Made by a program: the position numbers and the translations under genes
Assembly: GCA_002030045.1 (NCBI GenBank)
Contig: LQBI01000031.1
Coordinates: forward strand, 94,854-158,853
Reading direction: 5' to 3'
Origin: Candidatus Aegiribacteria sp. MLS_C
GTDB lineage: Bacteria > Fermentibacterota > Fermentibacteria > Fermentibacterales > JCC-6
Length of the DNA: 64,000 nucleotides
The notes under the pieces: model-generated
Told to the model about the DNA's origin: nothing
Seen by the model: only the letters and a program-made list of their open reading frames with translations
Databases searched by the model: none
In this document: piece by piece, positions 10,070 to 61,681 of the stretch
Numbering within the stretch: the first letter of the stretch is position 1
How the letters are laid out: each line of letters opens with the position of its first letter

Positions 10070-10906
10070 CTAGATCTTGAGGAGTTTCAGCGTTTCCGAA
10101 CCGTTCTCATCGGATGCCACCACGAGGTAGCAGCCGCATGCAAGACCGGATCCGTCAATGGTCATCGAACCGGTCAGGGGTTGTTCCATCATGACCCTGC
10201 CGGACATGTCGTAGAGGATCATCGTACCGCTCTCGAAGCCGGAAGATGAGATTACCACGGTGGAGTTGAAGGGGTTCCGGTCCGCAGCCAGTGACCTGGC
10301 TGTCGAGGTTCCGCCTTCGCCGGAAACCCCGTTGTAAGTCTGGATGTATACCTGGACAAAACCGTTGTAGTTGCTGGCCAGAACGTCTGGAAGGCCATCC
10401 TCGTTCCAGTCGTCGATACAGAACCTGGCTCCGTAGTATCCCGTATTGATGATGGCCTCGTTCCCAGAGAAGGCCGGGTTGGCGTTGGTGCCGGTGTTCT
10501 CGTAGTAGTAGATGCTGTAATCATTCGCACCGCAGAGCAGGTCCTTCCTGCCGTCCATGTTCATGTCAAAGACCTGAGGGCAGTTCCTGTAGTGGCTGAT
10601 GTTGGTGCCGCTGCTCTGAAGAAGCGAATAGGAGTTGTAGACTGGGTCCGTGTCTATCGTGTCGTTGATGTATAATCTGACGGTGCCGTCCTGGGTCCCC
10701 AGCAGCAGGTCACGGTTCCCGTCCTCGTCCCAGTCGACGCAGACCGGTGCCGAATTGTAGCCCACGTCTATCGTTACACCGCCGCAAACGAGGTCGGCCT
10801 CCTTCGTCAGTGTGATGGGTGATTCCGATGTCCGGCGGTAGTAGTGGGTGTAGCCATTTCGGTCCCCTACTACTATGTCGAGCATACCGTCGTCGTTGTA
10901 GTCCAC
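10070..10906 (-). CDS. FG-GAP/VCBS-repeat secreted protein, C-terminal part with T9SS C-terminal sorting domain (continuous in frame with 10934-11233 across a TGA)
   Basis: Repeated DxDxDG modules (VDWDEDGNRDLLLG, FDMNMDGRKDLLCG, DDWNEDGLPDVLAS). The C-terminus LYDMSGRVM…GCYLVVASDENGSETLKLLKI resembles a Por/T9SS tail. Confidence 0.6.
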   Translation of the reverse strand: MDYNDDGMLDIVVGDRNGYTHYYRRTSESPITLTKEADLVCGGVTIDVGYNSAPVCVDWDEDGNRDLLLGTQDGTVRLYINDTIDTDPVYNSYSLLQSSGTNISHYRNCPQVFDMNMDGRKDLLCGANDYSIYYYENTGTNANPAFSGNEAIINTGYYGARFCIDDWNEDGLPDVLASNYNGFVQVYIQTYNGVSGEGGTSTARSLAADRNPFNSTVVISSSGFESGTMILYDMSGRVMMEQPLTGSMTIDGSGLACGCYLVVASDENGSETLKLLKI

Positions 10907-11352: not shown

Positions 11353-12651
11353 TCAGTCTATCAGGTCCCGTCTGCCTATCCAGCCGAGGTAACCGTCGCG
11401 GACGAAGCGCCAGTACCTGTTGAGTCTCCTGGGGACCGAACCCCTGTCCCAGTCGGTGGGCCTGAATACGTTGGGGTCCGGCACCACGAGGGAGCCGACA
11501 TAGGAACCCTCGCTGTAGACCTTGTCGATCTCGGCTGCGATGGTGTCTATGTCCTCCTCGGAGGCGACGCCGTTGGAAGTTGCCTTGTAGAATTGAACGG
11601 TGACCCGTATGGGGAAGCTGGGGTCCCTTTCGATCTCGAGATTGTCTATCTCGGTGAAAGGCCCTTCCAGCTCACCGTGGCCTATGACCGCGGCCTCGAC
11701 ATCTGATGACCTGGACTGGGCTGCTCCTGTGGCGACCATTGAGGCATCCTCGCAGCAGCAGACCTCATCGAACCATGTGCTCTGGGGATTGCTCTGCTTC
11801 AGCGGTATCTGTATCAGAAGGACCATGTTCAGGTTGCTCTCATCTGATATGTCCGAGGGATCACCGCCCTGCTGGGCGTACTGGGTCCTGAAGTCCGATA
11901 TCCTCTGGCCCGTAAGGCTGGCACGCTGGCCGTTCTCGTTGAAGAAGAGCCTCTGTCCCCAGCTCCAGGAGCCGGGAACGGCGTCCCTAGTGTTGTCTAT
12001 AACCGTGACGCTTGTTCCTTCGCGGGTCACCAGGATGGTGAGCACCGCAGGGTCGCCCTCGTAGGACTGGTAGTTGTAGAGCACCGGGTTGAAGGTGGCG
12101 TTCCCGCTCTGAGGTATCGGCAGGAAGACCGCCTGCGCACTCACCAGCACCACGCTGTCCCTGGGAGCCAGAAGACTGTGCTCGTCGGCCTCCCATGATT
12201 CCGGATCGTGAAGGTAGAACCTGATGTTATCAACGAAATCCGTGAGAGATACGGGAGCCAGGTCCTCACCTATCTCGTTCCCGACCAGCAGGTAGAAATC
12301 GTCGGGGTCCATGTCGGCCGAGAGGTCATGGAAGTTCGGGTACCTTATTACCGGCATGCATGTCAGGGTTGGGTATTCAGCCCCGTCATCGTAGCTGTGG
12401 ACCTGAATGGTCATGTCGGAGATGTTGGGCCCCCAGCAGGAGCCGTAGTACCGTCCGGTGTCCTCCCATGTGACGTTGACCACGTCCAGGCCGTGTTCGG
12501 AGGCCATCTGTGTGACCTTGCTGTCCCAGACCATTTCGGCCACCCGGTTGACCACCTCCCGGTAATCATCGTTGGCAGACCTACCCGGGCAGAAGTAGGC
12601 GGCGAATGAGACCGATACGATCATCATTGTTGCCATCGTGTTCATCAGCAT
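11353..12651 (-). CDS. hypothetical secreted protein (signal peptide), unknown family
   Basis: 432-aa ORF. N-terminal hydrophobic signal MLMNTMATMMIVSVSFAAYF. I recognise no conserved catalytic motif. Confidence 0.55.
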   Translation of the reverse strand: MLMNTMATMMIVSVSFAAYFCPGRSANDDYREVVNRVAEMVWDSKVTQMASEHGLDVVNVTWEDTGRYYGSCWGPNISDMTIQVHSYDDGAEYPTLTCMPVIRYPNFHDLSADMDPDDFYLLVGNEIGEDLAPVSLTDFVDNIRFYLHDPESWEADEHSLLAPRDSVVLVSAQAVFLPIPQSGNATFNPVLYNYQSYEGDPAVLTILVTREGTSVTVIDNTRDAVPGSWSWGQRLFFNENGQRASLTGQRISDFRTQYAQQGGDPSDISDESNLNMVLLIQIPLKQSNPQSTWFDEVCCCEDASMVATGAAQSRSSDVEAAVIGHGELEGPFTEIDNLEIERDPSFPIRVTVQFYKATSNGVASEEDIDTIAAEIDKVYSEGSYVGSLVVPDPNVFRPTDWDRGSVPRRLNRYWRFVRDGYLGWIGRRDLID

Positions 12652-12737
12652 TTCAATACCTCCAGGTTGACTGACTTATCGGAACCTTTCTTCACTGCTG
12701 TTACACGCCCCCCTGAATCTTATTCCATAGATCCGGA

Positions 12738-12760
12738 GACGGACCTTAATTCATCAGGGA
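12738..12760. promoter_or_regulatory. copy of the GACGGACCT(T/A)AATTCATCA motif shared with the 13.7-kb inverted repeat, about 90 bp upstream of the 11353-12651 gene start
   Basis: GACGGACCTTAATTCATCAGGGA differs at 2 of the first 19 nt from the inverted-repeat arm GACGGACCTAATTTCATCAAG. Confidence 0.3.
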
Positions 12761-12824
12761 ATTGACTCGAGCAGTGCGAAAGGGCTTACCGTTGAAAGAG
12801 AATGCCGGTGAAAAAGGAAGCGGC

Positions 12825-12850
12825 GGGAAGGATCCCGCCGCGTTACTTTA
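12825..12850 (-). terminator. intrinsic terminator downstream of the 12868-13635 gene
   Basis: Stem gcggcggga / tcccgccgc with loop agga; on the minus strand it is followed by ttccttttt. Confidence 0.5.
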
Positions 12851-12867: not shown

Positions 12868-13635
12868 TTAGAGTACGTTGAAGAGCCTGAGAAAGTCTAT
12901 CAGCTGGTACTCGTAGGACAAGAGGTCGGCGCCGTCCGTAAAGACGCTGTCTATGTTGAGTTCGGCGTAGTGGTCATTGCTGAGCTGGACGAATACCCAG
13001 TCGAAGTCGGTTACCTGCACGGAGTCAACCCATTCGGTGGATCCCGGTTCGGGTGCGAGCCTGCCGTGAGCACCCCTTGGGCAGAGCTTGGTGTCATTGC
13101 CACCGGGGTAGTTCACCGGGTCGAAGTTTCCGGAGAACAGGTAGAGCATGTTGCCCACGGTATCAATGTAGACATCCTGGGCGAAGTCCATGGAGTCGGC
13201 GCAGCCAAGTCCCCAGCCGGTGCCGTTATCGTAGAATACGAGTCCGTTCGACTCGGTGCCCACGCGCATCTCCCTCTCGTTCAGTGCGGACTCGGCCCTG
13301 GTGTCCACCCTGTTGGAGAAGCCGGCGGAGTAGTTGAGCCCTTCGGAAGCCTTCACCTGATAGTATCCGGTGGTAGTAGCTATGTGAGCGTAGGTCGTAT
13401 CCTCCGAGATGAATTCGGACCATGAACCCGGCATCGTGGTGGCGAAGTAGATGTGGTAACCATCGACCGTTACATCGACAGCATCCCAGAATAGCACTAC
13501 CGTATCACCCCTGGATGCGTTCTCGTCGATCTGGAGGTTCTGCACGTCCGGAAGGGTCCCGGACGGCGTTGAAGGCTCGCTGGAACATGCGATGAGAAGG
13601 GCAAGGGCGGCTGAGACTACAAGGCACTTCTTCAT
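12868..13635 (-). CDS. lipoprotein, probable fibronectin-III-like fold, unknown function
   Basis: Signal peptide plus lipobox (LALLIACSS). The DGYHIYF…YYQVKA pattern suggests an FN3-like domain. Confidence 0.55.
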   Translation of the reverse strand: MKKCLVVSAALALLIACSSEPSTPSGTLPDVQNLQIDENASRGDTVVLFWDAVDVTVDGYHIYFATTMPGSWSEFISEDTTYAHIATTTGYYQVKASEGLNYSAGFSNRVDTRAESALNEREMRVGTESNGLVFYDNGTGWGLGCADSMDFAQDVYIDTVGNMLYLFSGNFDPVNYPGGNDTKLCPRGAHGRLAPEPGSTEWVDSVQVTDFDWVFVQLSNDHYAELNIDSVFTDGADLLSYEYQLIDFLRLFNVL

Positions 13636-13695: not shown

Positions 13696-13777
13696 AGGGA
13701 CGGACCTAATTTCATCAAGTTATTTCTGTATATGATTGATCGATGTCAAATAACTTGATGAAATTAGGTCCGTCCCT
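13696..13777. repeat. perfect 29-bp inverted repeat (arms 13696-13724 and 13749-13777, 24-nt AT-rich spacer) followed by a direct repeat of GGTCCGTCCCTGAA (13767-13780 and 13784-13797)
   Basis: AGGGACGGACCTAATTTCATCAAGTTATT and its exact reverse complement AATAACTTGATGAAATTAGGTCCGTCCCT are read directly. They lie in the divergent promoter region between the 12868-13635 gene and the dnaE2-like gene. Confidence 0.7.
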
Positions 13778-13814
13778 GAACTAGGTCCGTCCCTGAATGG
13801 TATTGATTTTGTGT

Positions 13815-13826
13815 GAACAAATGTTT
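13815..13826. promoter_or_regulatory. candidate LexA (Cheo-box-type, GAAC-N4-GTTY) SOS operator overlapping the dnaE2-like start region
   Basis: GAACAAATGTTT matches the GAACRNRYGTTY core 12 of 12. It sits 12-23 nt upstream of ATG 13838, within the near-palindrome TGTGAACAAATGTTTACA. Confidence 0.35.
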
Positions 13827-13837
13827 ACATATATGGC

Positions 13838-16714
13838 ATGGAATACATGATCGGTCCTCTGCGCAGCTGGTACTCCTTCCGGAGGGGAGTGGCATCACCG
13901 TCGGACCTGTCGTCGTCGTCGGCATCCAGGGGGTTCTCCTGCGGTCTGCTGGCCGATCTCGACGTCATGTGCGGTCAGCTGGAGTTCGCCGGAGCCTGCA
14001 GGAAGGAGGGGATCGCCGGTGCAGCCGGGGTCGATCTTGAGGTTTCGGGAACCAGGGCCGTATTCGCCGCCGGGGAAGGAGGCTGGGGACAGCTCTGCAC
14101 CCTCGTCACCTCGACACTGCTACCGGAGCGTATAGGTACCGGGGAGGCAATGGCCTCCACCGACCGCCTGACGGCCATAGTAGGGACTCCGTACGCCGCT
14201 ATGGAACTGCGTGAAGCCCGGGGTTTCGAAGGTGAGGTGCTGGTGGGCGTCCTTCCGGAGGAACTGTCCGGAGTCTCTCCCGCTATGGCTGAGAGGGATA
14301 TCGTAGAGACCGGCTGCAGTCCGGTGGCGGTGTGGCCGGTGATGTTCACCGGAGGGGAGCAGATAAGGACCCATAGAGTGCTTCGAAGGGGCTACCTGGC
14401 CATCGAGAAGAGGAGGCCGCTGCAGTCCGATTACGCGACGGAACACAGCATCATGCCTGATGCGGAAGCTTTCGGAAGGAGCTTCCTCGGGGCGGAGAGG
14501 GCCATCTCGGGGAACATGGCGCTGGCGGAAAGACTGGGTACGCTCCCGAGCACGGGGAACCGCCGACGGAAGAGGGTCCCGGAGGAAGAAGGGAAGCTTG
14601 CGGAGATCGCCGCCTCGAGGATCGGTACCGTCTATCAGGGAAGCGCGGCGGCGAATCACAGGATGGAGAAGGAGCTTGCGGCCATACTGGAGAACGGTCT
14701 CGCCGGGTACTTCCTGAGGTTCTTCGAGATAGTCGAGTACTGCAGGGAGCGGGGCATAGCCGTATCCGCGCGCGGTTCGGCGGCGGGCAGCATAGTGGCC
14801 TATCTACTGGGCATTTCCATCATCTGCCCCATCAAGCACGACCTGTCATTCTCCAGGTTCTTCAACGTGCTCAGGTCGAGCCCTCCGGACATAGACCTGG
14901 ACATAGACAGCTCGAGGAGAGAGCAGGTGCTTGACTGGTTCCTGAAGAGGTCCGGCAGGAGCGGGGCAGCCGTCTCGCAGACCGTCGCCCACAGGTCCAG
15001 GTCGGCGTTCAGGGTCGCGGCGTCGGGACTGGGGATCGGCAGTTCCGAGATGGATACACTCACGAAACTCCTCAGGTACCGTGACAACGGTGCCTGGAGG
15101 AGGCCGGAGGCACGGCTGGCGCTGGAGAGATCCCTTCTGCTGAGGGGACTGCCTTCGCATCTGGCCCCCCATCCCTGCGGAGTCGTGTGGACCCATGACC
15201 CCGTGGACACCTTTGTGCCGCTTCATCCAAGCGCCATGGGATGCCACATCACCCATTTCGACAAGGACGGGGTGGAGGAGATGGGGCTCCTCAAGATGGA
15301 CCTGCTCGGCCAGAGGGGTCTCACAGCGGTCTCCATGACCTGCTCGGTACTCGGACGGGAGCCCATGGAGGTGTTCCGAAGAGGAGGACGAATACTCGGG
15401 GGAGCCATGGAACTGCTGGACTCCGGCAGGACGATAGGAGTGGTGCACGTGGAGTCCCCCGCCATGAGGGGGCTGCTCAAAGAGATGCGGATACGCACGA
15501 TGGAGGACGTGGGACGGGCTCTGGCCCTGGTCAGGCCCGGTGCCGCCGCTGGAGGCGGAAGACGGAACTACATGGAGTGCCTCCACTCCGGGAGGATTCA
15601 GCAGGGCTGTCTTCCGGAACTCCGTCAGGTGCTTCGGGAGAACATGGGGGTCATGCTCTACCAGGAGGACGTGTCCAGGGCCGCCGAGGTGCTCCTGGGA
15701 CTGGACGAGGCATCTTCCGACCTGCTGAGGAGACAGCTGAAGAAGGGCAGCATACACGAGGAGCAGGTGATATCCATCTGCAGGAGGAGATGTATGGGGC
15801 CCCGGAAGGCAGCGGCGGTATGGGAGGTTCTTTCGGGGTACGCAGGCTACGGTTTCTGCAAGGCCCACGCCTTCACCTACGCCGCGGTTGCATGCGGAGC
15901 GGCGGCCCTCAAGGTAGAGAGTCCGGCCCTCTACATGGCCTCGGTGATGGCGGCGGGCGGCGGGTTCTACCCGTCCAGGGTCTACCTCGAGGAGGCGCGT
16001 CGAATGGGAGTAGAGTTCTCTCCTCCGGGGGTCAACACCGGCCGCTGGCTTACCTGCGAGATGGAGGGTCGTATAGTTCCAGGCTTCCACCATCTGAAAG
16101 GGATGGGGGCCGTTGAGTACGAGAGGCTGGAGGCCGGAAGGCCCTACCGTTATCCCTCGGAGGTCCTCTCCGCCGGATGCGGAATGTCCCTCTGCAGGAA
16201 CATGGCGGCAGCCGGCTGCTTCGGTGAGCTTGGCTTCTCCCCGCCGGAAGCTCTCATGCAACTGGAGGCTGGGGACGGGGGTTTCTTTCCCGGCATACCC
16301 CAGGGCACACCGCCACTGCCCGACTACAGCCGGGAGACCAGGCTGGCGATGGAGCTGGGACTGCTGGGCCTGCCCCTCTCGCAGAACCCTCTCGAGCTCC
16401 TGCAGCCTCCTCCAGGCACGGTGCCTCTGAAGGATGTCCCCGTGTCCGGCACCTTCGGAATGTGGGGCAGGTCTGTGACGACCAGAAGGCTGGAGGGTGG
16501 TTCCGGGTTCCTGATGATGGAGGACGCCACCGGAGTTGCGGATGTGTTCCTTCCCTCACCGCTCTTCGGCAGGGCGGAGTCCATTCTTGTCCGTCCGGAA
16601 GCTACCATTATAGTAAGGGGTAGGCTGGAGAGAGGGAGCAGGATCCGCGGCTTGTACGTCGAGACAGGTCCGCTGTGTCTGGGACCTCTCGAACCCGAGC
16701 CTCCCGAAGAATAG
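13838..16714 (+). CDS. dnaE2: error-prone DNA polymerase, DnaE2/ImuC-like (Pol III alpha family, degenerate PHP domain, no tau-binding C-terminus)
   Basis: Pol III alpha palm and finger motifs are present: GYFLRFFEIVEYCRERGIAVSARGSAAGSIVAYLLGI, PDIDLDID, HPCGVVW, ITHFDKDGVEEMGLLKMDLLGQRGLT, LVRPGAA, YQEDV, GYGFCKAHAFTYA, and an OB fold near the end. 958 aa, shorter than a replicative DnaE. Confidence 0.8.
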   Translation: MEYMIGPLRSWYSFRRGVASPSDLSSSSASRGFSCGLLADLDVMCGQLEFAGACRKEGIAGAAGVDLEVSGTRAVFAAGEGGWGQLCTLVTSTLLPERIGTGEAMASTDRLTAIVGTPYAAMELREARGFEGEVLVGVLPEELSGVSPAMAERDIVETGCSPVAVWPVMFTGGEQIRTHRVLRRGYLAIEKRRPLQSDYATEHSIMPDAEAFGRSFLGAERAISGNMALAERLGTLPSTGNRRRKRVPEEEGKLAEIAASRIGTVYQGSAAANHRMEKELAAILENGLAGYFLRFFEIVEYCRERGIAVSARGSAAGSIVAYLLGISIICPIKHDLSFSRFFNVLRSSPPDIDLDIDSSRREQVLDWFLKRSGRSGAAVSQTVAHRSRSAFRVAASGLGIGSSEMDTLTKLLRYRDNGAWRRPEARLALERSLLLRGLPSHLAPHPCGVVWTHDPVDTFVPLHPSAMGCHITHFDKDGVEEMGLLKMDLLGQRGLTAVSMTCSVLGREPMEVFRRGGRILGGAMELLDSGRTIGVVHVESPAMRGLLKEMRIRTMEDVGRALALVRPGAAAGGGRRNYMECLHSGRIQQGCLPELRQVLRENMGVMLYQEDVSRAAEVLLGLDEASSDLLRRQLKKGSIHEEQVISICRRRCMGPRKAAAVWEVLSGYAGYGFCKAHAFTYAAVACGAAALKVESPALYMASVMAAGGGFYPSRVYLEEARRMGVEFSPPGVNTGRWLTCEMEGRIVPGFHHLKGMGAVEYERLEAGRPYRYPSEVLSAGCGMSLCRNMAAAGCFGELGFSPPEALMQLEAGDGGFFPGIPQGTPPLPDYSRETRLAMELGLLGLPLSQNPLELLQPPPGTVPLKDVPVSGTFGMWGRSVTTRRLEGGSGFLMMEDATGVADVFLPSPLFGRAESILVRPEATIIVRGRLERGSRIRGLYVETGPLCLGPLEPEPPEE

Positions 16715-22475: not shown

Positions 22476-23528
22476 GTGAAGGTCGCGGTAACGGCGGATG
22501 TCCATCTGGGAAGGGAAGGAGAGCATCCCGAGAGGCTGGAGGCCCTGGGCTGCATCCTCGATACCGCCGAAAGCAGGGGAATCCCGATCCTGGTCATCGC
22601 CGGCGATCTCTTCGACCAGAATTCCACCGGCTACTCGGGCTTCGAGCAGCTGTGCCGGCGACACCCCGGCATACAGGTGCATCTCATACCCGGCAACCAT
22701 GATCCGGACATATCCGGAAAGACCGTCGTAGGCGACAACATAACGGTCCACCGTCAGGTCACATCGGTCGACCTGGACGGTGTCTCAATGGTCTTCGTGC
22801 CCTATTGCGAGAACTCCGGCATGTGTGATAGCCTGGGGAACCTGAATACGGGCGGGCGCTGGGTCCTGGTCGGCCACGGCGATTACCTGGGGGGGCTGAA
22901 GGAGCGCAATCCCTACGAGAAGGGGACCTACATGCCCCTGTACAGGAAGGACCTTGAGCTGCTCAAACCCTGGCGGGTCTTCCTGGGCCACATTCACAAG
23001 CCCCTGAAGGACTCCTCCGTCTACTATCCCGGATCCCCCTGCGGGCTGGACATAAACGAAACGGGCAGGAGGAGCTTCCTTCTCTTCGACACCTCTACCG
23101 GGAAGGTGGATAGGGAGACCGTTGATACAGCGGTGATCTACTTCAGGGAGAGTTTCCTGGTCATTCCCGACGAACTGGAACTGGACAGGCTCAGGAAACA
23201 GGCCGAAGCCAGGACAGCCGCATGGGGGCTGACAGCCGGTGAAAGGCCGAAGGCCAGGGTAAGGGTGGAGGCCAGGGGGTTCTCATCGGACAGGGAAGCC
23301 GTGATGGAATGCCTACGGGAATCATTCTCCGACTACACCTTCCATTCCGGCGAACTCCCGGACATATCCGGCCTCCGCATCGCCGGGGACGGAAGACGGA
23401 CCACCATTGCACGCAGGGCCATCGAACTCATAGAAGACCTGGACTGGGAATACGGAGGCGAGCAGCCTGACAAGGAGCAGGTCATGGAAGCGGCCCTTGG
23501 AATAATCTTCGGGGACGGGGCCGGATGA
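22476..23528 (+). CDS. sbcD: SbcD/Mre11-like metallophosphoesterase nuclease
   Basis: GTG start gives MKVAVTADVHLG. It is followed by AGDLFD…GNHD…GHGD…GHIH, the Mre11-type phosphoesterase motifs I-VI. Confidence 0.7.
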   Translation: MKVAVTADVHLGREGEHPERLEALGCILDTAESRGIPILVIAGDLFDQNSTGYSGFEQLCRRHPGIQVHLIPGNHDPDISGKTVVGDNITVHRQVTSVDLDGVSMVFVPYCENSGMCDSLGNLNTGGRWVLVGHGDYLGGLKERNPYEKGTYMPLYRKDLELLKPWRVFLGHIHKPLKDSSVYYPGSPCGLDINETGRRSFLLFDTSTGKVDRETVDTAVIYFRESFLVIPDELELDRLRKQAEARTAAWGLTAGERPKARVRVEARGFSSDREAVMECLRESFSDYTFHSGELPDISGLRIAGDGRRTTIARRAIELIEDLDWEYGGEQPDKEQVMEAALGIIFGDGAG

Positions 23529-25657
23529 TGCCCGTCAGGATCCGGAGCATGAGGATCATGAGGGAGGGCCCTCTCCAGAAGGACCTTGACCTTGAACCGG
23601 CGGACCTGAACCTGATATACGGCAGGAACGAGACGGGCAAGACATACGTCGTCGAGGCCATGATATCGCTGCTCTTCCGGACCGGCAGGGATTCCCGCTG
23701 GTCCAGCAGGTCAACCAAGTCCAGGCCGGCGACCGTGAGGGAGTGGGAACCCAGAGGGGAGATCGAGGTGACCGGGCTCGGGGATGGAGCCACGGTCTTC
23801 ACGGCAGGCAGTCCAAGGATCGAGGACCTGGCGGAGAGGGGCGACGGAATGCCATCGGACCTCTCCAGGCTGCTGGTGGTCAGGGCCGGCGACACCAGGC
23901 TCTCCGATGCCAGGGACGGAGTCGGTGACGAAGTCCTGAGGACCTACCTCTCGGGAAAGAGCGTTCTGGACGAGGTGGAAGCGAACATCGGTCAGGAGAC
24001 GGTGAAGAACGCCGTCATAACCGATGGCCGCATAGAGGCCGATAACAAGGGTCTTTACCGGGACAGACTCACCCTCGAGAGGGAGCTACGATACCTGGAC
24101 GAGCTGCGCATGGTGGTGGACGAGAACGCCTCCCTGGTCCGGCTCAATTCCCTGGAGAGAATGAAGGGCGAGCTGGAGGAACGGCTGAGGGACCTGGAGG
24201 ACGCAAGGAGACACCAGGCCTTCCTGCTCCGGGAGGAACGGTCCAGGCTCCTTCTGGACCTCGAAGAACTGCCATCAGAGGAGCAGATCATCCAGCTGGG
24301 TACCGACATCAGTCTCTACCGATCCAGGAACAGGGACCTCCAGCGGCTGAGTGCGGAAATCAAGGAAGCCTCCTCCACCGGCGGTGAACTGGAATGGCTG
24401 GAGCAGGCAAGGGAGGAGTACCTATCCGGTACAGAGTCAGAAGGCAGGGAGCTGATTCCCGCTTCCGCCTGCAGGTACCTCGCACTTCTCTTCCTCCTTA
24501 TGGCGGGTGCCGGAGCATTCTTCGGCAGGGCTCTCACCCTTGCCGGAACCCTGCTTGCAGCCGCATGCCTGGTTTACCTCCTTTGGAGCCGCGGAAAGCG
24601 CCCTTCCCCGGCGGAGACTGAAATTAGGAGGGCTATCGAGAGGGAGTTCCAAAGGAGGTTCGGCAGGGAGCTGACCGATACCGCTACCCTGAAGATGGTC
24701 CTCAGGGAACTGGAGAGCGAGAGGATACGATCCGCCACCGCCGTCGAGAACAGGGACAGGACTGCGGAGGAGGTCGAGGGGGTCGGGAAGCGCGTTGAGG
24801 GGAACATCTACATTCTTGCAGGCAGGGAAGTCCCTCCCGATGAATGGGACGTGGTCCTGGACGGGTTCAGGGCATCGAGGAAGAAACTGCAGGAGGAGCT
24901 GGCCTCGGTCGACGGGGTCATAGCCACTCTGGGAGTACCGCTTGAGGAGAGCTTCCCGCAGCCTTCCACAGCTGAATGGGACCAGAGGGCCTACATCGAT
25001 GTCAGGGAACGTCTGGCGGCTGTAAACGGTGAACTGGACAGGGAGAGGAAGGGCCTCGAGGAACTCAAGGTGGACATATCGGTTGCGACCGGCCTGAATT
25101 CCAGGGATATTCGCGAGCTTATAACGGCGCTGGAGGACAGGAGACGTCAACTCGCGGAGGAACACCGCCTGGTCACCGCCAGGATCCTTGCCGGGAACAC
25201 CGTCTACAGGACCATATGCCAGTACAGGGAACAGGAGAACGCAAGACTCGGCCAGGCCCTGGAATCCCCCGAGATAGTAAACCCGCTGCGCATGATGACC
25301 GGAAGGTACAACGGCATCAGGATGACAGACGACGGTGACCTGTACCTGAAGACCGACGGAAGGGGCGAGTATCCCCTGCACCATCTCAGCACCGGCGCCG
25401 CCGAGCAGGTCTACATGGCCCTCAGGACCGGTTTCGCCAGCCTGTCCTTCGGAGAGCCGGCCTTCCTGCTGCTTGACGACGCATTCCAGCATTCCGACTG
25501 GGACAGGAGGAAGAACCTGGTGGACCAGGTCACGTCAATGGTGGAGGATGGGTGGCAGGTGTTCTACTTCACCATGGATGAGCACCTGAGGAAACTATTC
25601 GACGGGAGGGGAATGGAGATGGGCAGCGGCCGCTACCGTTACCTCAGCCTTGATTAG
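23525..25657 (+). CDS. sbcC: SbcC/Rad50-like ATPase with an internal two-helix transmembrane hairpin
   Basis: Walker A GRNETGKT; long coiled-coil-like central region; C-terminal signature/Walker B/D-loop (LSTGAAEQVYMALRTGFA…FLLLDDAFQHSD). In place of a zinc hook it has the hydrophobic stretch YLALLFLLMAGAGAFFGRALTLAGTLLAAACLVYLLW. Confidence 0.7.
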   Translation: MMPVRIRSMRIMREGPLQKDLDLEPADLNLIYGRNETGKTYVVEAMISLLFRTGRDSRWSSRSTKSRPATVREWEPRGEIEVTGLGDGATVFTAGSPRIEDLAERGDGMPSDLSRLLVVRAGDTRLSDARDGVGDEVLRTYLSGKSVLDEVEANIGQETVKNAVITDGRIEADNKGLYRDRLTLERELRYLDELRMVVDENASLVRLNSLERMKGELEERLRDLEDARRHQAFLLREERSRLLLDLEELPSEEQIIQLGTDISLYRSRNRDLQRLSAEIKEASSTGGELEWLEQAREEYLSGTESEGRELIPASACRYLALLFLLMAGAGAFFGRALTLAGTLLAAACLVYLLWSRGKRPSPAETEIRRAIEREFQRRFGRELTDTATLKMVLRELESERIRSATAVENRDRTAEEVEGVGKRVEGNIYILAGREVPPDEWDVVLDGFRASRKKLQEELASVDGVIATLGVPLEESFPQPSTAEWDQRAYIDVRERLAAVNGELDRERKGLEELKVDISVATGLNSRDIRELITALEDRRRQLAEEHRLVTARILAGNTVYRTICQYREQENARLGQALESPEIVNPLRMMTGRYNGIRMTDDGDLYLKTDGRGEYPLHHLSTGAAEQVYMALRTGFASLSFGEPAFLLLDDAFQHSDWDRRKNLVDQVTSMVEDGWQVFYFTMDEHLRKLFDGRGMEMGSGRYRYLSLD

Positions 25658-33243: not shown

Positions 33244-35655
33244 CTACCTGCAGACTATCACCCTGCCGGTGTGGATACCGCCGGCCGGGTCCGCGGAGCG
33301 GATCATGTACACGCCCTGAGGCACTACGGAGCTGTCCCAGGTGATGGTGTGCTGACCCGCGGCCAGCGGGCCGGAATGGATTGTGGCCACCATCCTGCCC
33401 GCGGTGTCGTAGACGGACATGCTGAAGTCACCGGTGGCGGAGAGCGAGACCGGTATGGAGAGCAGTCCCGACACCGGGTTCGGCCATGGCGTGCCAACCG
33501 AGGTGACCATGGCGCCGGGTCCCTCACCGGTTCCCATGCCGTTGATGACGCCCTCCGCGGGCAGGCAGTTGTGGGCGGTGACCATCCAGAGGATGTCGTT
33601 CAGACCACCGATGGGATCGAAGGTCAGGGTGACGCAGCCGGTGGAATCGGTGACGCCGCTGGCCCAGAGGCTGTCGTGGTAGAGGCAGACGAGGGCGTTG
33701 TTCACCGGCGCCCTGGACAGGTCCACGTAGAAAGCTGCCTCGGTGGATCCCACGGGCAAAGTGTAGGGTGGAACCACGGAGAGTTCCATCGGTACCTCCG
33801 TCCTCATGTCCATGGTCGGGTCGCCGAACCAGTGGAAGAGGTCGTAGGTCGTCTCTGCGTACCACTCCCAGCTTCCATAGGGGTTGAAGGGAGCCGCCAC
33901 GTACATCTCCATCTTGGCGGTGGTGAGGGCCTGGCCCGCCAGGTAGTTGCCGGTGGGGTCGGTGTAGAGGGCCGGAGGTGTCGTGTACTGGTCGACGAAG
34001 GATTTGTGGTGTCCGTAGGTAAGGTAGTCGTTGAAGTAGCTGTAGCTTGAGGCAGTGGCGGCAAAGACCCCTACGGCGCCGCCCTCCATCCTGAAGAAGT
34101 TCTCGGCGAAGCAGTCGCCGGAGAACTGACCCGTGAGGCAGTTGGTGCTCATGACCATGGGGGTCATGTCGCCGTTGCTCAGGCTCGACAGGTTGCTGGT
34201 GTAGAACGGGGGATCGGCCCATCCGCTGATGGACCCGTGGTCGCGGTGCTGCACCAGGAACACCCCGCCGTTGATGGCGTCGGTGATGCCCGCGGCGTTG
34301 CCGTCCCAGACTATGTCTCCGGGTACCATCTGTCCGGCGCTGGGAAGGTCGCTCCTGTAATAGTAGGGGGGCGACTGGGAGGTGTCCTTCACGTACTCGC
34401 GCTGGACCTCCTTGCCGTAGATGTTCATGTAGGTGTCGCGGACGGTTTCCAGCGTGAAGCAGAACCAGCGGGTGGCGACGGTTCCCCCGTTTGCCTGCAG
34501 CATTCCGGCGGTGAGGACGTGTCCCCAGAAGTCCGGGTCCATGAGGGGATCGAACTGCCACTTGAGTATCTTGGCCTCGACTATGGGATAATGGCTGGTC
34601 GGCGTGACGAAGCGGCTGTGGAAGATGTCCGGGAAGTAATCGGAACCGTCGACGCAGACGTACCTGTTGTCGCTGTAGCACCCGGTGGGGGCGCTGTAGC
34701 TTGTGAGGTCCCCCTGGTCGCCCACGAAGAGGACGAAGCTGGGAGGTATTACCCAGTTGTCGTAGGCGTCCTTGATGTAGTTGTAGATCTCGGTCTGGGA
34801 CCAGCTGCCGGCGGCCACGACGGCGGTGAGGTAGCCCTGCCTCATCTTGGCCTCGATGAAGGCGTCCATCATGGTGTCCACGAAGTCGTCGCCTGCTATG
34901 ATGAGCAGGTCGGCGGCGGTTATGTCCCTGGCCTGCCTTATGTTCGAAGCCCTTATCGCCTCTCCGGAAGGTATATGGATCGAGGAAGCGGCTTCTCCCA
35001 GTATGCTGGAATTGACAAGGGTCCTGTAGGTATTGCGGAAGAACCTGCTCAGAAGCCTGGGATCCACCTGCACGGAGCCTCCCAGGTCAACCGTCACTCG
35101 AAGCCTCGGGTGAACGGTCATTACCTGTGTGGCTGCATTCCAGCTGAAGGGAAGGACGGTGAAGCGTCCGATGTTGACACCCCTCATGACGCCGGCTTCC
35201 TCGAAGGCCGCGTCCTGCCGGGGATAGTTTCCCTGAGCGTACATCTCAGGAAGGTAGGTGAAGGGTACCGGGTCGTAGGAGTTGTCCGACGGAATCGGCT
35301 GCATCGGCGAAGGGGAGAACCCTTCCAGCACCACCGGTTCGCCGACGGGCTCGACGGATATCGAGACGTTCGGGGCATCCGGCAGGGCTGCCAGGAAGGA
35401 AACCTTGGGAAGCATCGGGGCGCCTTCCGTCTCGGCGTAGGGGGTCATTGAAGGTACCGAAAGCACGCTGAAGGTCTTCCCCTGCTCCGTGAAGTCGGTG
35501 TAGAAGAACCCGGGCACGGTGATGTCGACCGTGAAACCCGAAGGAGTGCATTCCACGACCTCGAGGCTGGCGTGGCCGAGGTCGGTGATTCCGAAGTCGA
35601 CCCATTCGGCCAGCGACAGGGAGGAAAGCGCTAGAAGGAGGATCAAATGTTTCAT
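33244..35655 (-). CDS. peptidase C25 (gingipain-like) with T9SS C-terminal sorting domain
   Basis: Signal peptide. Gingipain-type blocks (LLIIAGDDFVDT, VLFVGDQGDL, HRDHGS). The C-terminus SMSVYDTAGRMVATI…GVYMIRSADPAGGIHTGRVIVCR is T9SS-tail-like. Confidence 0.8.
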   Translation of the reverse strand: MKHLILLLALSSLSLAEWVDFGITDLGHASLEVVECTPSGFTVDITVPGFFYTDFTEQGKTFSVLSVPSMTPYAETEGAPMLPKVSFLAALPDAPNVSISVEPVGEPVVLEGFSPSPMQPIPSDNSYDPVPFTYLPEMYAQGNYPRQDAAFEEAGVMRGVNIGRFTVLPFSWNAATQVMTVHPRLRVTVDLGGSVQVDPRLLSRFFRNTYRTLVNSSILGEAASSIHIPSGEAIRASNIRQARDITAADLLIIAGDDFVDTMMDAFIEAKMRQGYLTAVVAAGSWSQTEIYNYIKDAYDNWVIPPSFVLFVGDQGDLTSYSAPTGCYSDNRYVCVDGSDYFPDIFHSRFVTPTSHYPIVEAKILKWQFDPLMDPDFWGHVLTAGMLQANGGTVATRWFCFTLETVRDTYMNIYGKEVQREYVKDTSQSPPYYYRSDLPSAGQMVPGDIVWDGNAAGITDAINGGVFLVQHRDHGSISGWADPPFYTSNLSSLSNGDMTPMVMSTNCLTGQFSGDCFAENFFRMEGGAVGVFAATASSYSYFNDYLTYGHHKSFVDQYTTPPALYTDPTGNYLAGQALTTAKMEMYVAAPFNPYGSWEWYAETTYDLFHWFGDPTMDMRTEVPMELSVVPPYTLPVGSTEAAFYVDLSRAPVNNALVCLYHDSLWASGVTDSTGCVTLTFDPIGGLNDILWMVTAHNCLPAEGVINGMGTGEGPGAMVTSVGTPWPNPVSGLLSIPVSLSATGDFSMSVYDTAGRMVATIHSGPLAAGQHTITWDSSVVPQGVYMIRSADPAGGIHTGRVIVCR

Positions 35656-35985
35656 CTTGCTCCTTAACGTTCTTGGTGTGTGTTCCCAACCGGTATAGAA
35701 GGAGTGTACGGGGCTGACGGTTACCGTTTTCGTCAGGATTATAAGAGACTGCCGGGGTGAGGTAAAGTAAGATATTGCGAGTCAATCATATACAGTTATA
35801 CAAATGTTTTTTCGAATCTTACAGTAATAGAACACGTTTGAATGTTATGAATACATTTGATAAGGATTAAAACATGCTGTTTATACCCTCTATCATGAAT
35901 GAGGAATTTAGAATGGCTATTAGCATTATTATTAGTAAAATTTTATATTATCAGTGAAAATGTTCTCGAAGTATCTTCCAGGGCA

Positions 35986-60574: not shown

Positions 60575-61681
60575 TCAGTCGGTGATCTCTTCCAGTTCAT
60601 CTGCACGGTAGGTCGACAGGGGCGTCGGATCCTCCATGTTCCTGCCCGGATGGTATTCCAGTGCGGGCTGCACCAGCGATCCCGCCCTTATGAATAGATC
60701 GGCCACGGGTATTCCCACGGGACACGCATCGCTGCACTGCCCGCATCCGGTGCAGTACGGGGCTATGTGGTTCAGCCTTCCCAGGTGGAACTGCAGTGTG
60801 CCGGGTGGCACTCTCAATGCACCCCTTCTTTCGGCCTCGTGCCCTATCAGCGAAGGTGGATAGATTGTCCTCGCGGTCTCGTAATCGCACAGCAGGCAGG
60901 TGCACAGGGGACACGCCTGCCGGCATGCCCTGCAGCCTATGCATTTGGCGAACAGGCTTACCAGTTCCTCCAGACCGCTGCCGGCGGACGGGCCCTTCTC
61001 AATGAAGTCCTGCCGCTGAAGGGACCTGCGCCGGGCGACAGCCCTGGTGAGCTGCTCCAGGGACGGCCCCTGGACGATCTCGAAACCGGTAAGGTCTTCG
61101 GCCATGGACGCCGCCGCCTCGGACCTCAGGAGTATTCGAGTGTCTTCCGGGCTTTCATCCGCTTCCAGAAGCAGGACCATGTCGGCAGGGTCCCCGGGGA
61201 CGAAATCGGTGCAGACCGAGCATGCGGTCCTGTAACCGGATCCGCCGCCGCTCTTTCCTGAGTCATTTCCCGAGGCCTTGCCGGAGTCTCCGACCCCGGG
61301 GCAGGTGCAGCTGATGAAGAACATGTTCTCCACGCTGCCCTGTGACTGTTTCACGTTCTCGATAAAGGCCCTCAGCTCGCAGGGTCTTATGATGACGGCG
61401 ACCTTCTCCTCGAGCGGCCGCGATACCGTCAGCTGGGAGAGTGCCCTTGCGGCCTGGACCGGCATCAGGGGATGGAACGGGACCGCTTCCTCGACAAGTC
61501 TCGGATCCGATATGAGGGAATAGCTGAAGCTCTCGTTGCCGGGGATGCTGCGAAGCGAGAAGACGGCCTTCACGGAACCGCTGACCAGGAGCTGCCTCAG
61601 GATGCTGCGAACCCCCTCGACGTGGTCTCCGGGACACCGGATGTACCGCCCGCCCGCCGTTGCCTCAGTCCTCGAACTCAT
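60575..61681 (-). CDS. FrhB/FdhB-family protein (coenzyme F420 hydrogenase/dehydrogenase beta-subunit-like) with 2x[4Fe-4S] ferredoxin insert
   Basis: CIGCRACRQACPLC and CTGCGQCSDACPVG. GAGGAGGA RBS; 17-nt overlap with the upstream paralog. Confidence 0.7.
   Translation of the reverse strand: MSSRTEATAGGRYIRCPGDHVEGVRSILRQLLVSGSVKAVFSLRSIPGNESFSYSLISDPRLVEEAVPFHPLMPVQAARALSQLTVSRPLEEKVAVIIRPCELRAFIENVKQSQGSVENMFFISCTCPGVGDSGKASGNDSGKSGGGSGYRTACSVCTDFVPGDPADMVLLLEADESPEDTRILLRSEAAASMAEDLTGFEIVQGPSLEQLTRAVARRRSLQRQDFIEKGPSAGSGLEELVSLFAKCIGCRACRQACPLCTCLLCDYETARTIYPPSLIGHEAERRGALRVPPGTLQFHLGRLNHIAPYCTGCGQCSDACPVGIPVADLFIRAGSLVQPALEYHPGRNMEDPTPLSTYRADELEEITD

Follow-up and report, generated by a model that had tools for sequence, protein, structure and literature searches.

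A Hairpin-Forming Intergenic Palindrome beside a DnaE-Like Gene of Candidatus Aegiribacteria: A Candidate Small Repeat Family with REPIN- and MITE-Like Traits

The Lipoprotein–Polymerase Locus

The DNA analyzed here (the window, 64,000 nucleotides in full) comes from Candidatus Aegiribacteria sp. MLS_C and corresponds to positions 61094–125093 of the 164.6-kb JGI contig MLSed_10000017. The MLS_C bin was recovered from Mahoney Lake sediment and comprises 2.9 Mb with a G+C content of 59.6% (PMC4846661). At the locus of interest a lipoprotein-like gene on the minus strand and a DnaE-family polymerase gene on the plus strand are divergently transcribed, in agreement with a first-pass annotation of the window. 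The DnaE-like gene is followed by a LonB/LonC-like protease gene. The genes and their flanking signals are as follows:

11353–12651, minus strand: gene for a 432-aa protein with a hydrophobic N-terminus; no Pfam or NCBIfam match
12820–12841, minus strand: canonical intrinsic terminator of the lipoprotein gene, GCGGCGGGA-TCCT-TCCCGCCGC then TTCCTTTTT; not part of the repeat
12868–13635, minus strand: lipoprotein-like gene, 255 aa; no Pfam or NCBIfam match
13803–13831, plus strand: promoter-like region of the DnaE-like gene, TTGATT-N17-TACATA around the 16-bp palindrome GTGAACAAATGTTTAC (13813–13828)
13838–16714, plus strand: DnaE-family polymerase gene, 958 aa; best NCBIfam match "error-prone DNA polymerase", far under the cutoff

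We compared this locus with nine other assemblies that were retrieved by homologs of the polymerase and the lipoprotein, among them L016 (GCA_016936235.1), L021 (GCA_964639605.1), and L020 and L009 (both from SRR7615342). The TATATT element, which is the −10 of the lipoprotein gene, is conserved 5′ of that gene in every genome compared. Immediately 5′ of the polymerase start lies the conserved box GT[AG][AT]ACA[AT][AT]TGTTTACATAT, which occupies 13813–13828, is unique in the window, and occurs in all of the relatives compared, with or without the palindrome P1 that is described below. Judged by this comparison of sequences, the LexA-like box is the truly conserved cis-element of the lipoprotein–polymerase intergenic region. 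It resembles the Gram-positive type of LexA box (GAAC-N4-GTTC). The −10 element of the DnaE-like gene ends 6 nt before the ATG, and the gene has no Shine-Dalgarno sequence. Together, the box and the promoter suggest that this Fermentibacterota gene encodes an error-prone polymerase, is under SOS control, and is possibly leaderless. The box matches neither of the two Bacteroidetes LexA-like motifs reported previously (PMC8565304). A weak match to it (3 mismatches), TTATACAAATGTTTTT at 35796–35811, lies 5′ of a C25-peptidase/T9SS gene (33244–35655, minus strand) and is probably due to chance.

The terminator at 12820–12841 separates the two minus-strand genes and is kept in L010, L013, L019, and L020 and missing in L016 and L021. 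Farther along, 5′ of the 432-aa gene at 12700–12726 (minus strand), the sequence GGAATAA-N15/16-GTAACAGCAGTGAA (GGAAT-N17/18-GTAAC) is conserved in all relatives and looks like an ECF-sigma-type promoter.

Structure of the P1 Palindrome

Between the divergent lipoprotein and polymerase genes lies P1, which consists of these parts:

13696–13725, no strand assigned: left arm, AGGGACGGACCTAATTTCATCAAGTTATTT, fully complementary to 13748–13777
13726–13747, no strand assigned: spacer or loop, CTGTATATGATTGATCGATGTC, AT-rich, with GATC and ATCGAT
13748–13777, no strand assigned: right arm, the exact reverse complement of the left arm; the Logan contig L008 starts within it
13779–13795, plus strand: tandem duplicate of 13762–13778 (the arm end and 5 flanking nt), 17 nt long and 16/17 identical

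The first-pass annotation had claimed a perfect 29-bp inverted repeat around a 24-nt spacer, far beyond chance, with a partial duplication of the right arm. The inverted repeat is real and measures 30 nt in each arm, with 100% complementarity and a 22-nt spacer; the duplication was also recovered, the sequence TAGGTCCGTCCCTGA occurring exactly at 13765–13779 and again at 13782–13796. The palindrome is indeed nonrandom. Folding of the region gives −31.9 kcal/mol for single-stranded DNA (z = −9.1 against shuffles), and P1 as RNA, the form in which folding had been recommended, gives −48.7 kcal/mol (z = −13.5). Its G+C content is 35%, and it has no T-run. P1 was considered as an intrinsic terminator and rejected on this composition and on its position between divergent gene starts; a terminator scan finds only 12820–12841.

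The closest relative of MLS_C, represented by SRR7615342, has a polymerase that is 91% identical and a lipoprotein gene with 90% nucleotide identity, and P1 is common only to these two. In this independent sample, both arms of the orthologous P1 are present on two contigs that end there: L020 ends 26 nt beyond the left arm, GGGGACGTACCGCATTTCGTGCACTT, and L009 starts 2 nt before the exact reverse complement of that arm. The palindrome is therefore not an assembly artifact. The loop of P1 is unalignable with the loop of this orthologous element. The 17-nt duplication is missing in L009, where the arm is directly followed by GAGGGG-TTGATT, and thus it represents a later, MLS_C-specific event, probably a slippage duplication.

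The palindromes also disturb assemblies. Five Logan contigs (L008, L009, L017, L018, and L020) start or end at or within arms, and the JGI contig L022 folds back at 1135–1288, where the right arm of the second palindrome (P2, below) is followed by the contig's left flank in reverse complement.

P1 Is Absent from Most Relatives

The lipoprotein–polymerase intergenic region is 202 nt long in the window versus 101–109 nt in L010, L013, L016, L019, and L021–L023, and the palindrome is not present in the orthologous intergenic region of these six related genomes. Because the region is short in the relatives and lacks the palindrome, P1 represents an insertion or expansion of ~95 nt. Conserved promoters flank the P1 site in the relatives without P1. 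Based on this distribution among the aligned sequences, P1 is most likely a later gain in the MLS_C lineage. We also considered that the arm was derived from the ancestral sequence of the same site, GGTGGACAGACC; this derivation was rejected since the arm instead matches the P2 copies over 22/26 nt.

A Second Site, P2, Decayed in the Window and Intact in Relatives

A near-identical copy of the arm core had been reported at 12738–12756, and this segment is an exact match to GACGGACCTNAWTTCATCA. A 19-nt core pattern allowing up to 3 mismatches has 3 matches in the window versus 0.07 expected, and 12738–12763 is 81% identical to the P1 arm over 26 nt. The copy belongs to a second site, P2, of which two parts remain in the window:

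12735–12763, minus strand: surviving arm, read on the minus strand as CTGATGAATTAAGGTCCGTCTCC; the GGAAT promoter element of the 432-aa gene follows 8 nt downstream
12773–12793, minus strand: degenerate remnant of the distal arm, AACGGTAAGCCCTTTCGCACT, which has lost its pairing with the other arm

The P2 region of the window folds no better than shuffles (z = +0.72), and P2 is decayed and non-folding in both the window and L020. Perfect P2 palindromes with the arm AGGGACGCACCCAATTTCGCCAAGTT are found in L016 (10773–10843) and L021 (7490–7555), where they follow directly on the lipoprotein stop codon, in place of the canonical terminator, and precede the promoter region of the next gene. The surviving P2 arm of the window aligns with the promoter-proximal arm of these intact elements. 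The third copy had been read as an independent half-site; it is rather what remains of a palindrome that has decayed in the window, whereas relatives carry it intact at this position. In L019, the first arm of another P2 variant follows the terminator, and the end of the contig cuts this copy; P2 was not found in L010 or L013. P2 is probably the older of the two sites.

The gene between the two sites is itself variable. The 255-aa lipoprotein gene is missing in L011 (5849–6000) and L012 (5887–6000), where the 432-aa gene faces the DnaE-like gene, and thus the gene flanked by P1 and P2 is variably present.

The Arms Remain Watson–Crick Complementary Despite Sequence Divergence

Four intact copies were aligned: P1 of the window (W-P1), P2 of L016 and of L021, and the P1 of SRR7615342, which was joined across the loop with its centre missing (L20/L9-P1). 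Elements of the family measure 66–82 bp or more. The gaps between perfect arms and the sequences at the junctions are as follows:

W-P1: gap 22 nt; junctions AACAT ... GAACT
L016-P2: gap 19 nt; junctions GCTTT ... CCTAC
L021-P2: gap 10 nt; junctions GCCGC ... ATCCA
L20/L9-P1: gap at least 28 nt; junctions GGGCA ... GAGGG

All 25 stem pairs are Watson–Crick in all four copies. Where stem pairs have changed, both sides changed (8 two-sided changes, 0 one-sided), and no G-U pair is found among the 100 pair cells (25 pairs in 4 copies). None of 500 shuffles attains these stem values, and none of the register-shifted controls, in which pairing partners were slid, comes close. The loops, by contrast with these arms, are variable, differing in both length and sequence among copies, and the distance between arms ranges from 5 to at least 28 nt across family members. 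A single arm is not self-complementary: its folding does not surpass that of shuffles (z from −0.55 to +0.80). In contrast to classical REPs, the arms also lack a GTAG-like end. No copy of P1 or P2 is followed by a T-run. The absence of wobble pairs, together with the position of P1 upstream of both promoters and of P2 in a 3′ region, argues for a property at the level of DNA rather than RNA.

An outer arm block, GGGACG-ACC--ATTTC, is common to all copies. Variable positions across the four arms number 4/18 in the outer block versus 5/8 in the inner stem, a contrast that is only suggestive. At third codon positions of the lipoprotein gene, the window and L020 differ by 23%, L016 and L021 by 21%, and the two clades from each other by ~43–44%. 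Between L016 and L021, loops and immediate flanks differ, yet the arms show 52/52 identical positions; under independence at 21% divergence this identity has p ~5e-6. It follows that intact arms are under constraint and that a palindrome evolving purely neutrally is unlikely.

Relationships among arms depart from the genome tree. Between W-P1 and its positional ortholog L20-P1, 8/26 arm positions differ, all compensated, versus only 4 positions between W-P1 and the clade-B P2; L20-P1 differs from the L019 P2 at only 3. This pattern of sequence similarity is suggestive of replacement or conversion among family copies, the incongruence involving few sites, of which four could be one event. Conversion among copies would in turn require that further copies exist somewhere.

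Copy Number and Signs of Mobility

In the window and the nine related loci (175.8 kb in all), P1 and P2 are the only matches of a covariance model. No further copies lie in the MLS_C flanks, 6.6 kb and 9.9 kb beyond the window, and approximate arm searches agree; nor does any copy besides P1 and P2 occur in ~110 kb of the relatives' loci in the same neighborhood. The MLS_C sequence thus scanned amounts to 80.5 kb, or 2.8% of the 2.9-Mb genome, and contains P1 as an intact copy and, 1 kb away, P2 as a decayed one. If placement in the 2.9 Mb is random, this yields a 95% upper bound of ~110 copies in MLS_C; a family of hundreds of copies is unlikely, whereas a low-copy family would be compatible with the result.

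Wider searches were likewise negative. Genome and metagenome contig collections returned six chance matches, in unrelated genomes of other G+C content, to GACGGACCTWAWTTCATCA, a pattern too specific for the MLS_C variant, in collections from which the source contig is apparently missing. The family pattern has no match among viral contigs, BLAST against plasmids and phages gave none, and Rfam 15 gave only generic hairpin matches, the best of which, a miRNA-precursor hairpin, scores 38 bits where the threshold is 96. As far as these searches could show, there is no earlier description of the repeat family. Among the genes in 80 kb of MLS_C examined, we found no transposase, RAYT, integrase, or LexA gene, and target-site duplications are absent at all four junction pairs.

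A Hairpin Repeat Element as the Favored Explanation

Taken together, these observations lead us to favor, with a probability of about one in two, the hypothesis that P1 is a copy of a small, low-copy, hairpin-forming, palindromic intergenic repeat family that is REPIN- or MITE-like, selfish or semi-selfish, and restricted to a sub-clade of Ca. Aegiribacteria. Under this hypothesis, P2 would have been occupied first, with the lipoprotein terminator on one side and the promoter of the 432-aa gene on the other. P1 would have come later, 6–8 nt upstream of the −35 element of the DnaE-like gene, where the two divergent promoters leave the only gap that tolerates an insertion. The element may spread as a unit by copy-insertion or conversion, possibly through a single-stranded DNA hairpin handled by a putative enzyme. 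Its arms would be kept perfect at the DNA level by hairpin-templated (template-switch) correction, by selection on the hairpin, or by both. Template switching makes imperfect inverted repeats perfect and homogenizes their arms (PMC7202029; PMC8604942); such correction probably helps to keep the arms perfect here. Any effect on neighboring genes would be incidental, upstream promoter DNA having been displaced and the −35 region of the lipoprotein gene replaced, and the importance of P1 to the flanking genes is probably incidental as well.

Several observations count against a mobile family. Both sites lie within 1 kb around one gene, no copy has target-site duplications, no transposase occurs among the genes of the 80 kb examined, and the constraint on the arms is also compatible with a host function. 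The proposal of the first-pass annotation that the repeat is MITE-like survives in part: a family exists at two sites, one gained and one decaying, whereas the target-site duplications by which a MITE was to be recognized are found at no copy, and dispersed copies are absent from the 80.5 kb. The same annotation had anticipated that a motif confined to this locus and not conserved in related genomes would be a local terminator or hairpin; no regulon was found, yet the family is conserved in relatives.

Comparison with known systems places the family near several of them. REPINs combine inverted conserved ends with a less conserved spacer, form one long hairpin as a whole unit, show compensatory stem changes, and leave singlets that are decayed doublets (Bertels and Rainey 2011; PMC3116915). 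The present family shares this anatomy, as well as a size of ~70–110 bp, the lack of target-site duplication, gain at a new site, decayed single arms, persistence at orthologous sites, and constraint on intact copies. However, REPINs occur in tens to hundreds of copies, whereas here two sites are known from the 80.5 kb of MLS_C and ~110 kb of relatives scanned; they are accompanied by a single-copy gene for RAYT, a Y1 HUH transposase, flanked by the repeat, and no such gene is present in the 80 kb; and they are described mainly from Proteobacteria and some cyanobacteria and are not known from Fermentibacterota. Furthermore, a REP arm is itself an imperfect palindrome, which the arms here are not, and the evidence does not place the family within the REP/RAYT class proper. 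Bacterial MITEs such as the Correia elements of Neisseria, ERIC, and RUP resemble the family in being short and noncoding with inverted repeats of ~26–30 bp, in lying in intergenic regions near promoters, and in their presence or absence between close relatives. Unlike MITEs, the family has an inner stem that is also perfectly complementary, its four junction pairs are free of target-site duplication, no parent IS with matching ends was found, and Rfam, plasmids, phages, and viral contigs hold nothing similar. Integron attC sites are similar in having a conserved hairpin over imperfectly conserved sequence, blocks at the stem base, a variable center, and a position near a variably present gene. 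Unlike attC sites, the elements have neither RYYYAAC/GTTRRRY boxes nor extrahelical bases, their stems being perfect, and there is no integrase in the 80 kb; gene order here is chromosomal and syntenic across the clade.

Alternative Explanations

The next explanation to be weighed is that of a cis-regulatory element, in which a host protein would read the outer block GGGACG-ACC--ATTTC, as duplex or as cruciform, and thereby regulate the genes for secreted proteins and possibly the DnaE-like gene as well. The arrangement of the window is in keeping with such a role, since an arm lies upstream of all three genes in the same orientation and each element ends 5–8 nt before a −35-like element (for P2 the GGAAT of the 432-aa gene, for P1 the TTGATT of the DnaE-like gene), and the constraint on intact arms (0/52 differences between L016 and L021) and the presence of exactly one intact copy per clade, adjoining the lipoprotein gene, would also be expected. 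The position of 5–8 nt, however, is the only place in short intergenic regions where an insertion spares the promoters. The promoters themselves are conserved in genomes that lack the elements (P1 in six relatives, P2 in L010 and L013), P2 has decayed in the window and L020, and no regulator gene adjoins the locus. Arm spacing differs among copies by more than 20 nt. A dimer on B-DNA could not accommodate such variation, and a fixed-spacing dimeric regulator on duplex DNA is ruled out; the inner stem, moreover, covaries perfectly where its sequence is free, a pairing that a duplex-binding protein does not need. We consider regulation by a host protein unlikely, although the constraint on the arms and their closeness to −35-like elements leave it some weight. 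The narrower claim that the repeats form an operator family for one regulator is not supported, in view of the absence of P1 from six relatives, of the variable arm distance (5 to at least 28 nt), and of the third copy being a decayed palindrome.

Known operators and sites were also tried as candidates for the arm and rejected. The CtsR repeat, CIRCE, parS, dif, and the IHF consensus do not fit across family members, and sigma-54 and ECF promoter readings of the arm have the wrong spacing. The motifs GGA-N5-TCC and CTAA-N5-TTAG of Bacteroidetes LexA-like regulation (PMC8565304) likewise do not fit across the family.

An immobile structural palindrome without function, created as an inverted duplication by template switching and copied once to a nearby position by recombination, is less probable still. 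It would account for the restriction to two known sites 1 kb apart and for the lack of target-site duplications and of a transposase. Quasipalindrome correction by template switching, for which the precedents cited above exist, also explains, without recourse to RNA, why all stem pairs are Watson–Crick with changes on both sides and no G-U-type intermediates. It is, however, a mutational mechanism and not a class of element, and it leaves the arm identity of L016 and L021 and the second site unexplained: homogenization permits drift, yet these arms are identical at 52/52 positions despite 21% synonymous-site divergence. The outer block common to all copies, the deviation of arm relationships from the genome tree, and the decay of P2 in one clade also speak against it, the last indicating that correction alone is insufficient.

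We find it improbable that the hairpin acts as RNA, be it by terminating transcription, by insulating against read-through, by offering RNase III a processing site, or as a small RNA. The predicted RNA hairpins are very stable (−48.7 to −57.1 kcal/mol), and the P2 elements of L016 and L021 stand where the canonical terminator would be. P1, however, is probably not transcribed, given its location between divergent genes, with both conserved promoter elements downstream of it; moreover, no copy has a T-run, G-U pairs occupy 0/100 pair cells, perfection is equal on both strands, and Rfam offers only generic hairpins far under threshold. Finally, an attC-like or cruciform-operator system, in which the hairpin would be a structure-specific site whose conserved stem base is read by a dedicated hairpin- or cruciform-binding protein (such as a gene-moving recombinase or a regulator of the secreted-protein genes) of this uncultured phylum, is in our judgment highly improbable; the intact copy lies beside the variably present lipoprotein gene, on its 5′ side in one clade and on its 3′ side in the other.

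Implications and Additional Observations

If the hypothesis of a hairpin repeat family is correct, this would be the first palindromic repeat family noted in Fermentibacterota and a clean natural case of an inverted repeat that stays Watson–Crick during sequence turnover. The element is of a familiar kind and opens no new mechanism. For the annotation of metagenome-assembled genomes (MAGs), the element breaks k-mer assemblies and produces fold-back chimeras, and P1 should not be taken as an SOS or other operator, the conserved cis-element being the adjoining 16-bp LexA-like box.

Three further features of the region deserve mention. L016 carries at 13539–13579, between an FG-GAP gene and a methyltransferase gene, an unrelated perfect 20-nt palindrome (AAATGTCCCATTCCGGTGCC g GGCACCGGAATGGGACATTT), which is probably a terminator. 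At 22476–25657 of the window, a metallophosphatase with weak SbcD matches is paired with a 710-aa ATPase with weak Rad50/RecF-type matches, all under curated cutoffs; these similarities make the pair a possible hairpin nuclease of the SbcCD type, with potential consequences for the length of palindrome that the genome tolerates. Lastly, Por_Secre_tail domains, which mark type IX secretion sorting, are present on an FG-GAP protein and a C25 peptidase of the window (10070–10906 and 33244–35655), consistent with an origin of the window in the FCB superphylum.
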